Positions 20,035-22,498 of a DNA stretch of 64,000 bases are shown here, piece by piece. Position 1 is the stretch's first letter; each line of letters begins with the position of its first letter. The stretch is from an uncultured Actinomycetes bacterium. GTDB taxonomy: Bacteria; Actinomycetota; Thermoleophilia; Gaiellales; Gaiellaceae. The stretch spans positions 141,050 through 205,049 of the forward strand of contig CAVZJU010000003.1 in NCBI GenBank assembly GCA_963775695.1. Direction: 5' to 3'. The notes beneath the pieces are model-generated. The model had not been told where the DNA came from and searched no databases. It saw nothing but the letters and a program-made list of their open reading frames with translations. The translations under genes were made by a program, and so were the position numbers.

Positions 20035-20080
20035 CGCGATGAGGCCCGCGCTCAACCGCCTTCGGGCTGATGGCTTCTGT
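20035..20080 (+). promoter_or_regulatory. fluoride riboswitch (crcB motif), copy 5
   Basis: CGCGATGAGGCCCGCGCTCAACCGCCTTCGGGCTGATGGCTTCTGT. Divergent from copy 4. Followed by GGGAGG and ATG 20115. Confidence 0.8.
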
Positions 20081-20114
20081 GTCTTCTTCGGGTTCGCTCC
20101 AGGGAGGCGGACGT

Positions 20115-20540
20115 ATGAGTCATCTCGCGCCGGATTCAGCCGGAAGTGCCCAGGTCGAGATCGACGTCGACCCGGCTGGGCTCGACGAGCTTCGCGGCCG
20201 GGCAGGCGACGCAGCACCGACCGCGGACGAGGACCTGCTCCGATACCTCGTGTACCTGGGCGCCGGCTACCTGGAGACCGAGGCAGTCTCTGCGGCTGCC
20301 CCGAGCGTCCACGAGGCCTATGCGCGCCTCGACCGCATGCATGCTGCCGTGGAGGGGCACTCGTCGGTCCTGAGTTTCCACTACGGCGAGTCGGCGCGAG
20401 AGTTCGCCGAAGAGGAGAGGGCACACGCGGCTCACGAGCGAAGCGCCGGAGCCTACGAGGGGCTTGTCGAGAAGCTCGAGGCGGAGATCGCAGCCCGGGA
20501 AAAGCGAGTCGTCAGGCTGAAACGAGCGCTCGAGCAATGA
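20115..20540 (+). CDS. hypothetical protein (acidic, C-terminal coiled-coil-like), first gene after riboswitch 5
   Basis: ATG 20115 is preceded by GGGAGGCGG. Product MSHLAPDSAGSAQVEIDVDPAGLDELRG...LVEKLEAEIAAREKRVVRLKRALEQ. High GC3. No family recognised. Confidence 0.6.
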   Translation: MSHLAPDSAGSAQVEIDVDPAGLDELRGRAGDAAPTADEDLLRYLVYLGAGYLETEAVSAAAPSVHEAYARLDRMHAAVEGHSSVLSFHYGESAREFAEEERAHAAHERSAGAYEGLVEKLEAEIAAREKRVVRLKRALEQ

Positions 20541-21067
20541 GGACATCGCTTCTGACGGCCGATCTCGACGAGTTCGAGCGGACCGGGGCCGACGTCGGAT
20601 CCGCGTTTGCCCGTGGCGCTCGCTCCCTCGGCTGCCGGCAACTCCACGAGCGCCTGCTTGAACCCTTCAGCACGGAGGCGGGGCTGACCGAGTTGGTCGA
20701 TCTCTATGCCGAGGCCTACGCCCGGATGCATCTGCTGCGGTTCGGCTACATGAGCAAGGCCGAGGCGTATGCCGAATCGAAGGAACGGTACGACGCCGTC
20801 GACGACGTGCTCTTCGACCTACGGCGGCACGTCGTCCCTGCTCTTCGAACCCGTCTGGCGGAGGTCAGGCAGCGTGAGGCGCAGCTCGTGGCGGAGGCCG
20901 AGGCGCGCGGCATCCCGACGGCTGAGATAGGCCCGATCGTCCCCGCGGATCGAGCGCAGGTGACGTCGGTTCGCCCAGGCGAAGGCCCTCCACAGCGCCG
21001 GACGCTTACACCCCTCGCTCCACGGCCTACGCGGCTGCAACGGTTGCGGCAACTGTTGCGTCGATGA
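20537..21067 (+). CDS. hypothetical protein
   Basis: ATG 20537 overlaps the upstream stop (ATGA). Product MRTSLLTADLDEFERTGADVGSAFARG...YMSKAEAYAESKERYDAVDDVLFDLRRHVVPALRTRLAEVRQREAQL. The C-terminal Arg/Pro-rich tail is uncertain. No family recognised. Confidence 0.55.
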   Translation: MRTSLLTADLDEFERTGADVGSAFARGARSLGCRQLHERLLEPFSTEAGLTELVDLYAEAYARMHLLRFGYMSKAEAYAESKERYDAVDDVLFDLRRHVVPALRTRLAEVRQREAQLVAEAEARGIPTAEIGPIVPADRAQVTSVRPGEGPPQRRTLTPLAPRPTRLQRLRQLLRR

Positions 21068-21175
21068 GCGGGCTTCCCGCAATGCGTCTCGGCGATCGTG
21101 CGGATGCACCGTCGGCTCCCTCGACCGAATGTTGAGCTCGGACACACGACAACGGCGTCACAGATGGAGGAGACG

Positions 21176-22498
21176 ATGAGCAAGATCAGCGCCATCCAGG
21201 CACGCGAGATCCTCGACTCGAGGGGGAACCCGACGATCGAGGTCCGCGTGATCCTCGAATCGGGGGCGATCGGGACGGCCGGCGTGCCTTCCGGCGCGTC
21301 GACCGGAGAGCACGAAGCGGTCGAGCTGCGTGATGGAGATGCGGCTCGCTACGGAGGCGAGGGCGTGGTCGAGGCGGTCCGGGGAGTCGAAGGCGAGATC
21401 GCAGCCGCAATCGTCGGGCTCGACGCAGCCGACCAGGCGACGCTCGACCGGACGCTGATCGAGCTCGACGGGACTCCGAACAAGGCCCGGCTCGGGGCGA
21501 ACGCGATCGTCGGCGCCTCGATTGCAGCCGCGAAAGCGGCGGCTTCCGAAGCGAACATGCCGCTCTACCGCTGGCTCGGCGGCGAGGAGGCGACCGTGCT
21601 GCCGGTACCGATGCTGAATGTGATCAACGGCGGCGCGCACGCGCAGAACTCGATCGACCTCCAGGAGTTCATGCTGGTGCCGGTCGGCGCCGGATCGTTC
21701 GCGGAGGCGATGCGGATTGCGGCCGAGGTCTATCACGCCCTCCGCGGGCTGCTGCACGAACGCGGCCTGGCGACGGGCGTCGGAGACGAGGGAGGATTCG
21801 CCCCCGACCTGCCGAGTTCGGAGGCTGCGATCCAGGCGATCCTCCAGGCGGCCGACCGCGCTGGCCACAGCACGCGTGTTGCGCTCGCTCTCGACCCGGC
21901 CGTCAGCGGGCTCTTCCGGGACGGTCGGTATCACCTGACCGGAGAGGGCCGCGAACTCGACACGGACGGGATGATCGCCATGTACGAGGACTTGGCCGAC
22001 CGGTATCCCATCCTGCTCCTCGAGGACGGGTTGGCCGAGAACGAGTGGGAGGGCTGGCGGGACTTGACGGATCGTCTCGGTGGCCGACTCGAGATCGTCG
22101 GCGACGACATCTTCGTCACCAACGTCGACCGGATCCAGCGTGGGATCGACGAGGGCGCCGGAAACTCCGTGCTGATCAAGCTCAACCAGATCGGCACGCT
22201 GACGGAGACGCTCGACGCGATCCACCTCGCGCACAGTCACGGGTACAGCACCGTCGTCTCCCATCGCTCCGGCGAGACAACCGACGCCACGATCGCCGAC
22301 CTCGCGGTCGCGCTGAACACCGGGCACATCAAGAGCGGTGCTCCGTGCCGCGGCGAGCGGCTCGCGAAGTACAACCGCTTGCTCGAGATCGAGGCCGAGC
22401 TCGGCGAGCGCGCTGTCTATCCGAGGTGGGACGCATTCCCGCGAGCATCCCGCTCTCGCCGCTCCAGCCCGCCCGCGGCCGTCCTGACGGCCGACTAG
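21176..22498 (+). CDS. eno: enolase (phosphopyruvate hydratase)
   Basis: [25 protein letters not shown]...[17 protein letters not shown]...[11 protein letters not shown]...[14 protein letters not shown]...[19 protein letters not shown] lies upstream of ATG 21176. The stop TAG 22496-22498 lies inside the IS481 target duplication. Confidence 0.95.

Follow-up and report, generated by a model that had tools for sequence, protein, structure and literature searches.

A fluoride riboswitch-linked gene pair of Gaiellaceae-like bacteria and its probable independence from a neighbouring enolase

The subject of this study is a fluoride riboswitch aptamer and the genes that lie behind it, two small open reading frames (ORF1 and ORF2) and an enolase gene (eno), in a 64-kb stretch of DNA from an uncultured member of the Gaiellaceae (contig CAVZJU010000003.1; 'the window' refers throughout to this whole stretch). 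To judge from their conservation ORF1 and ORF2 are genuine genes, and we consider it probable that they form a two-gene module of a Gaiellaceae-type fluoride-riboswitch regulon that is independent of enolase. An earlier note, made from the sequence alone, had described an aptamer followed by ORF1 (141 residues), ORF2 (176 residues), an ATGA at 20537 joining the two and eno 108 nt further on, and all of these coordinates were confirmed (Table 1). It had also proposed that the two proteins might be accessory factors of the enolase, an idea that fares poorly, as the pair sits behind the aptamer with no adjacent eno at most of the related loci and survives both the deletion and the frameshifting of eno.

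The gene pair and its fluoride aptamer

By the usual measures of sequence comparison ORF1 and ORF2 are real genes because of their pairwise ratios of non-synonymous to synonymous substitutions (dN/dS; 0.17–0.43 for ORF1 and 0.14–0.37 for ORF2), a frame-specific pattern of guanine plus cytosine (GC) content and the number of their homologues, which is 35 for ORF1 (42–99% identity); for ORF2 a single-sequence search gave 7 and a profile search 24. GC content at the three codon positions is 0.79/0.47/0.77 in ORF1 and 0.76/0.51/0.76 in ORF2, with the reading frame switching at about position 20540, which matches both proposed frames. The good codon bias claimed in the earlier note is upheld to this extent, although GC at third positions (GC3, about 0.77) is weaker than the 0.87 of eno. 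This lower GC3 could be cited for the alternative that the two ORFs are chance open frames in a GC-rich leader and that the aptamer truly controls enolase alone, as could the several long spurious ORFs that overlap the region, since GC-rich genomes carry many of these. It is, however, already refuted by the conservation data, in that the protein-level conservation of the pair reaches down to 34–42% identity at the dN/dS values given above, and it is further contradicted by a conserved stop/start overlap between the genes, by the confident AlphaFold2 model of ORF1 and by the presence of the pair behind the aptamer where eno is absent, so that we regard it as vanishingly improbable.

The earlier note had raised the matter of conservation, and the two ORFs do recur elsewhere, always paired, in about 24 non-redundant related loci that were collected (designated here by L numbers) and surveyed by tblastn and Rfam. 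An ORF2 homologue lies directly 3′ of ORF1 in every related locus with enough sequence, and stop and start overlap in all 21 of the ORF1–ORF2 pairs checked, by exactly 4 nt in 16–17 of them (in the window the ATG at 20537–20539 runs over the TGA at 20538–20540). The family is nonetheless tiny: an exhaustive hidden Markov model search of 1.84 billion cluster representatives returned 30 clusters at E≤1e-3, a scan of 185,579 species genomes gave two loci, both in metagenome-assembled genomes (MAGs) of Gaiellaceae, and no match to the pair was found among 72,556 plasmids. The proteins neighbouring the pair in the window are 87–96% identical to those of one Gaiellaceae MAG, which points to a Gaiellaceae-like actinobacterium as the source of the window. 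In the second Gaiellaceae MAG (L022, 6387–6520) ORF2 has shrunk to a mini-ORF of about 44 residues, which retains the N-terminal MxVxLLxxELEEL and an end resembling RLQRLARFL, the middle of the protein having been lost.

The aptamer of the ORF1 leader is one of four above-threshold fluoride aptamers in the window, and the ATG of ORF1 lies 28 nt downstream of it on the same strand, as expected of a member of the fluoride regulon; it is located identically in L015, a locus nearly identical to the window, and in L001, from a Gaiellaceae MAG in which the pair is 76–80% identical. Among the relatives a same-strand fluoride aptamer heads the pair's operon in 13 of the 16 loci with visible upstream sequence, reaching the gathering score or better in eight (the window, L001, L005, L007, L009, L024, L029 and L033) and scoring 21–33 bits in five (L022, L026, L034, L036 and L037), a recurrence in keeping with a regulon. 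L019, in the most distant clade, has a 5′-truncated, sub-threshold RF01734 match at a contig end. L011 (about 5890–5960) and L012 (about 100–170) hold a homologous aptamer that is below Rfam detection and is substituted at core positions that are normally invariant (GAUG to GACG, AACCGCC to GACCGUC and CUGAUG to CUGACG), and which would be either a decayed riboswitch or a variant of altered specificity.

The commonest layout of these loci is aptamer, Na_H_Exchanger, an optional Usp, ORF1 and ORF2. In 12 of the roughly 24 loci (counting one 52-residue remnant, in L009) a same-strand Na_H_Exchanger gene is found upstream, and the gap between the end of Usp and ORF1 is often about 10 nt. The aptamer stands directly before ORF1 in the window, L001, L007 and L029. 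Aptamer and pair occur without an adjacent eno in L001, L005, L007, L029, L033, L034, L036 and others, and in the most distant clades (L013 and L019) no eno adjoins the pair. At L019 (121–3014) the pair is found between a Na+/H+ antiporter and a gene of the histidine-phosphatase/phosphoglycerate-mutase family (His_Phos_1), a neighbour that recalls gpmA of the Enterobacter cloacae fluoride operon. L009 has the antiporter remnant (5785–5940) before the pair and, after eno, a 109-residue ORF (8329–8658) in which about 20 residues of an ORF1 N-terminus are fused to the C-terminal half of an ORF2, this half being most like the ORF2 of L007; from this arrangement it seems that an antiporter–ORF1–ORF2–eno block was recombined into a resident pair. 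Protein P0042 is a similar ORF1/ORF2 deletion chimera.

Folding of the leader suggests how the switch might work. Pairing of the aptamer 3′ strand, GAUGGCUUCUGUGUCUUC, with the Shine–Dalgarno sequence (SD; GGGAGG, 20102–20107) and AUG (20115–20117) of ORF1 appears in the minimum-free-energy and the centroid folds of 20026–20130, and analogous pairing of the 3′ strand with SD or AUG is predicted for the leaders of L001, L007 and L029, the fold z-scores being non-significant in each case. Because the aptamer 3′ strand forms a pseudoknot when fluoride is bound, the modelled leader is likely to be a translational ON switch, acting through sequestration of SD and AUG rather than through a terminator. 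Co-transcription of ORF1, ORF2 and eno is plausible, because all three are on one strand, a search of 19780–22620 (which takes in the aptamer and the whole of eno) revealed no terminator-like site and the ORF2–eno spacer contains no aptamer detected by Rfam.

Table 1. Coordinates in the window of the aptamer, the genes behind it and associated features
Feature	Position	Strand	Description
Fluoride riboswitch aptamer RF01734	20026–20086	+	Rfam score 36.4 bits (gathering score 34), E 2e-6, matching the model over its full length
Putative expression platform	20069–20124	+	Predicted ligand-free fold in which the aptamer 3′ strand GAUGGCUUCUGUGUCUUC pairs with the ORF1 SD and AUG
ORF1	20115–20540	+	141 residues, acidic (isoelectric point, pI, 4.9), all-helical, unnamed family
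ORF2	20537–21067	+	176 residues; helical domain (residues 1–123) plus tail
ORF2 tail (residues 124–176)	20906–21064	+	Predicted disordered, Pro/Arg-rich, pI 12, net charge +8
Spacer	21068–21175	+	108 nt from ORF2 to eno; eno SD GGAGGA at its 3′ end
Enolase (eno)	21176–22498	+	440 residues; TIGR01060, PF03952 and PF00113
Enolase C-terminal extension	22445–22495	+	17 residues, lineage-specific
IS481-family insertion sequence	22500–23549	+	Transposase with LZ_Tnp_IS481, rve and rve_3; inverted repeats; target duplication

The AlphaFold2 models of both proteins are all-helical, in keeping with the helical or coiled-coil stretches that the earlier note had predicted. ORF1 (predicted local distance difference test, pLDDT, 88) has helices at residues 20–33 and 38–61 and a single long one at 65–140, and its conserved motifs are RYLVYLG and LRFHYxE...RAxAAHER. 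The ORF2 model (pLDDT 68) has helices at 2–15, 20–33, 47–70 and 75–123, beyond which the chain is disordered until a short helix at its end (166–175). The ORF2 tail is 17% proline, falls below a pLDDT of 50 at residues 141–149 and carries a motif conserved across the clade, IGPxVPxxRAQxTSxRPGEGP...PRPxxLxRLRxxxRR, that ends in an arginine cluster. No transmembrane segments were found in ORF1 or ORF2. When profiles enriched with locus-derived and distant members were compared by hhalign, residues 14–141 of ORF1 aligned collinearly with residues 1–123 of ORF2 over 121 columns (probability 49–69%, E 3–4e-5), bringing together LDEL with LDEL, RYLVYLG with RGxxALG and LRFHY with LRFxY. With this moderate support the two are probably divergent paralogues, and their models suggest that they probably form a heterodimeric coiled coil.

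The profile searches and structure predictions that the earlier note had proposed, run here for both ORFs, gave these helical models and no known relative, in agreement with its failure to recognise a family. Pfam, NCBIfam and PADLOC contain no family that matches ORF1 or ORF2 and PHROG none that does so consistently, and lenient thresholds applied to all family members brought up coiled-coil or compositional noise only, including PKcGMP_CC, ABC_tran_CTD, TetR_C_15 and phrog_664, none of them in more than a minority of members. Profile searches of the PDB, run with ORF1 and ORF2 at full length and with the N-terminal module of ORF1, returned nothing. Foldseek searches of the PDB with both AlphaFold2 models gave best E values of 8.0 (ORF1) and 1.5 (ORF2) and best TM-scores, normalised to query length, of at most 0.27, so that membership of a known helical stress or coiled-coil fold, such as PspA/ESCRT-III or WXG100, was rejected. 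Two further ideas were also discarded. The C-terminus of ORF2 has too low a mean hydrophobicity (about −0.8) for a membrane-targeting amphipathic helix and resembles an arginine-rich motif instead, and the His/Glu stripe FHY...EEERAHAAHER of ORF1 was dropped as a metal site because its histidines are not conserved in L026, L027, L033 and the distant clades.

The riboswitch-linked enolase

The enolase of the window scores 614.8 bits against TIGR01060 (cut-off 300), with a full-length match that ends at residue 422 of 440, and has both domains (PF03952, 1e-55; PF00113, 1.5e-110). It is identical to PDB entry 4yws at SGASTG, QEF, DEGGFAP, ALDPA, LEDG, GDD, IKLNQIG and SHRSGE and keeps the lysine of IKSG (IKTG in 4yws), so that the catalytic and metal-binding motifs are all in place and the enzyme is, on this comparison, catalytically intact. 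Its dN/dS is 0.15–0.30.

Its presence beside the pair is variable. Of about 18 loci with visible downstream sequence, eno follows the pair in six (the window with L015, L006, L009, L012, L026 and L027), and it is absent at this locus in both named Gaiellaceae MAGs. At L006 (7056–8223) eno is split over four reading frames on a contig where ORF1, ORF2, a cupin and a GNAT gene are intact, and is probably a pseudogene, the alternative being an assembly error. L001 matches the window as far as 14 nt past the ORF2 stop (21081) and resumes at 22421 with the last 78 nt of eno, which encode PGWDAFPRA (L001 6960–7060), and has thus lost 21082–22420 in a clean 1.34-kb deletion that leaves only the first 14 nt of the spacer. 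As those last 78 nt are retained, enolase was once present at L001 and was then deleted, the pair staying under selection. No second enolase was found within the 64-kb window. Enolase is normally indispensable, and its deletion, frameshifting or absence at these loci implies another copy elsewhere in the genome; the riboswitch-linked enolase is almost certainly an extra, non-essential one. We read it as a dispensable spare of a fluoride-inhibited enzyme because it is absent at most loci, frameshifted in L006 and deleted in L001, and, going by the same comparison, we lean towards seeing it as a facultative 3′ addition to the pair's operon. The loci together amount to a small natural experiment, the pair having persisted through the gain, frameshifting or deletion of eno, and they point to the riboswitch-linked enolase as the part that can be done without.

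The C-terminal extension of about 17 residues that the earlier note had seen on this enolase is real, in that relatives end earlier, at AFPRARR, AFPRAGR or AFPRFRTTQ. It occurs only in the window and in L015, whose enolase also has 440 residues. In L012 and L006 translation stops some 14 codons sooner, at a TAG that a small indel, visible in the DNA alignment, has removed in the window. The extension is, on this alignment, a sublineage-specific read-through after loss of a stop codon. Its GC content by codon position is atypical (0.68/0.79/0.84) and thus gives no sign of a functional extension, and we incline to regard the read-through as neutral. Directly behind eno lies an insertion sequence with the features of the IS481 family, namely a DDE transposase (LZ_Tnp_IS481, 1.9e-17), inverted repeats at 22500–22523 (TGTAGTTCC...) and 23526–23549 (...GGTCCTACA) and a 6-bp, CTAG-containing target duplication, ACTAGG, at 22494–22499 and 23550–23555. 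The duplicated ACTAGG supplies the TAG stop of eno (22496–22498) and also that of the transposase (23552–23554). L015 is an empty site, with a cupin gene 10 nt after eno and no IS481, and since its enolase has the same 440 residues the insertion is recent and not the source of the extension; an origin of the extension through IS481 was rejected on these grounds, the stop lying within the duplicated target.

Possible roles of the pair

The module would work as follows. Without fluoride, the aptamer 3′ strand would pair with the SD and AUG of ORF1; binding of fluoride would lock this strand in the aptamer pseudoknot and free the ORF1 start, and the ATGA overlap would let ORF2 be made in step with ORF1, perhaps one to one. 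The products, putative paralogues with a common plan of helix A, helix B and long helix C, would most likely zip into a soluble heterodimeric coiled coil, and it is probably through the Pro/Arg-rich tail of ORF2 that a partner would dock. Ancestrally, the module would have occupied the distal end of an operon of aptamer, CPA-type Na+/H+ antiporter, Usp, ORF1 and ORF2, and eno, where it is present, would be expressed by read-through from the same leader, possibly aided by relief of polarity.

What the pair does can at this stage be put forward only tentatively. Our best guess is that it serves the ion/pH-homeostasis arm of the response to fluoride as an adaptor or regulator. The antiporter/Usp system would be its most likely partner, although this too is a tentative assignment, with enolase and nucleic acid as improbable rivals for that place. 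The neighbourhood favours this arm (antiporter, Usp) over enolase, and shared regulation alone could explain either. A more speculative possibility, to which we give rather little credence, is that the pair is a fluoride-stress effector complex that docks through the basic tail of ORF2 on the CPA antiporter or on fluoride-sensitive enzymes; the heterodimer could then sense or buffer consequences of fluoride such as cytoplasmic acidification or metal–fluoride complexes. If true, this would add to fluoride resistance a new component at the protein level, beyond exporters and spare enzymes.

Two other explanations have to be weighed against a role in ion homeostasis. That ORF1 and ORF2 are enolase-specific accessory proteins (a protector, chaperone or regulator), keeping the enzyme at work under fluoride, draws on the presence of eno directly 3′ of the pair in a third of the loci that could be judged (the six of about 18 listed above), on the L009 antiporter remnant–ORF1–ORF2–eno block that has seemingly moved as a unit and on the conserved linear motif in the disordered tail of ORF2, which could dock on a globular enzyme; the pair might also act on a housekeeping enolase even where no eno adjoins it, since each genome should carry an enolase somewhere. 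Against this, purifying selection has kept the pair intact where eno was deleted (L001), frameshifted (L006) or never present, the pair neighbours the antiporter or Usp more often than eno, and no eno adjoins it in L013 and L019, the most distant clades. Adjacency of eno is, read across these loci, no better support for a link to enolase than for links to other genes of the fluoride regulon, and we hold the accessory explanation to be unlikely.

The pair might instead be a nucleic-acid-binding regulator, with a ribbon-helix-helix-like N-terminus, a coiled-coil dimeriser and an arginine-rich tail, that would give the fluoride response a secondary layer. The N-terminus of ORF1 does read like strand-helix-helix (V-E-V-E-L-D-L-D, LxELRxRA, LLRYLVYLGxxYL), its residues 1–19 are unstructured in the AlphaFold2 monomer, as expected if the strand needs a dimer, and the Arg-rich C-terminus of ORF2 is universal, distant clades included. 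Yet Pfam yielded no ribbon-helix-helix family for the 22 members searched, with E values of up to 10 allowed, the ORF1 N-terminal profile found nothing relevant in the PDB, the putative ribbon is acidic in a protein of pI 4.9, which is unfavourable for DNA binding, and a PHROG 'DNA binding protein' match is confined to 2 of 20 members. A ribbon-helix-helix (CopG/Arc/MetJ) domain at the N-termini of ORF1 or ORF2 was accordingly rejected as a resemblance of pattern only, and a nucleic-acid-binding role seems to us improbable.

Several observations also weigh against the reading that we prefer, a fluoride-regulated module in the ion/pH-homeostasis arm. Three loci (L006, L011/L012 and L013) lack a detectable intact aptamer, and the z-scores of the leader folds, as given above, are not significant. 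Several loci, including the window, have no antiporter beside the pair, which leaves the role in ion homeostasis as an argument from neighbourhood, and co-regulation by fluoride could by itself explain the antiporter/Usp neighbourhood. Paralogy depends on one profile–profile score (E about 4e-5, probability 49–69%), where a first, shallower comparison of the ORF1 and ORF2 profiles had given a probability of 6%, and confidence in the ORF2 model is only medium (pLDDT 68).

The wider fluoride island and known fluoride-responsive systems

The window holds a larger fluoride island around these genes. On the minus strand a weak fluoride aptamer (19818–19885, 21.4 bits), the first loop of which is enlarged, is oriented divergently from the ORF1 leader. 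It recurs in L015 and heads a hyf-like operon (11489–19885, minus strand) that encodes a NuoH-like fusion, two antiporter-like subunits, the large and the small NiFe subunit, Usp and an inorganic pyrophosphatase. The aptamer at 11008–11070 (plus strand; region 11008–11210) is followed only by a 41-residue ORF resembling the N-terminus of a NUDIX hydrolase (VRAIVVCGNRLLVTRERR...LPGG), probably a truncated remnant because the NUDIX gene that follows a fluoride aptamer in L009 and L011 is intact. A further aptamer at 5580–5641 (plus strand) precedes a 90-residue ORF and a HAD-like hydrolase (5899–6363), and one at 10889–10950 (minus strand) precedes two MutS_V-only genes (9317–10870 and 7797–9320) and an MFS transporter (6506–7981). 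No crcB or CLC-F gene was seen in the scanned parts of the window.

The best comparison for the island is the FRM operon of Enterobacter cloacae, which consists of a riboswitch, ppaC, uspA, eno, gpmA and crcB together with orf5249 (Liu et al. 2017, PMC5533749), and in which the riboswitch-driven eno, ppaC and gpmA were read as additional copies of fluoride-inhibited enzymes (PMC5533749). The window island is like it in having Usp, pyrophosphatase and eno under fluoride aptamers, and our reading of a spare enolase fits this precedent; a fluoride riboswitch driving a spare enolase was, in this sense, already known. The E. cloacae operon differs in that it has no counterpart of ORF1 and ORF2 and includes the CrcB exporter, and the modelled platform of the window looks translational (SD/AUG sequestration) and not terminator-based.

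Among the gene classes behind crcB-motif riboswitches are mutS-like genes, ion transporters and formate hydrogenlyase (Weinberg et al. 2010, PMC2864571). Around the pair lie MutS_V pairs, Na_H_Exchanger, Usp, the hyf-like hydrogenlyase, pyrophosphatase, HAD and NUDIX, all of them known fluoride-riboswitch classes. Enolase, Na+/H+ antiporters, Usp, HAD and NUDIX were reportedly also placed behind fluoride riboswitches by Baker et al. in 2012. ORF1 and ORF2 themselves match no annotated class of this kind, and their family is tiny and confined to Gaiellaceae-like genomes. A looser analogy is offered by KefF and KefG, the soluble ancillary subunits of the E. coli CPA antiporters KefC and KefB, which are flavodoxin-like oxidoreductases. 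ORF1 and ORF2 would resemble them in being small, soluble and encoded directly downstream of a CPA antiporter in L005, L019, L023, L025 and L036; they differ in their coiled-coil nature and in the lack of any detectable similarity, and the pair of the window has no antiporter next to it.

The new element here is a conserved, aptamer-linked two-protein module that fits neither a known family nor a known fold and comes from a narrow uncultured lineage. That lineage, of Gaiellaceae-like soil bacteria, is a very restricted one, and the function proposed for the pair is a guess. Gene classes behind fluoride riboswitches have, however, more than once given a lead to how fluoride is toxic, and it was through them that CrcB/Fluc and CLC-F came to be recognised as fluoride exporters, and the pair, tied to its aptamer as tightly as those classes are, is a candidate for a new component of the fluoride response.

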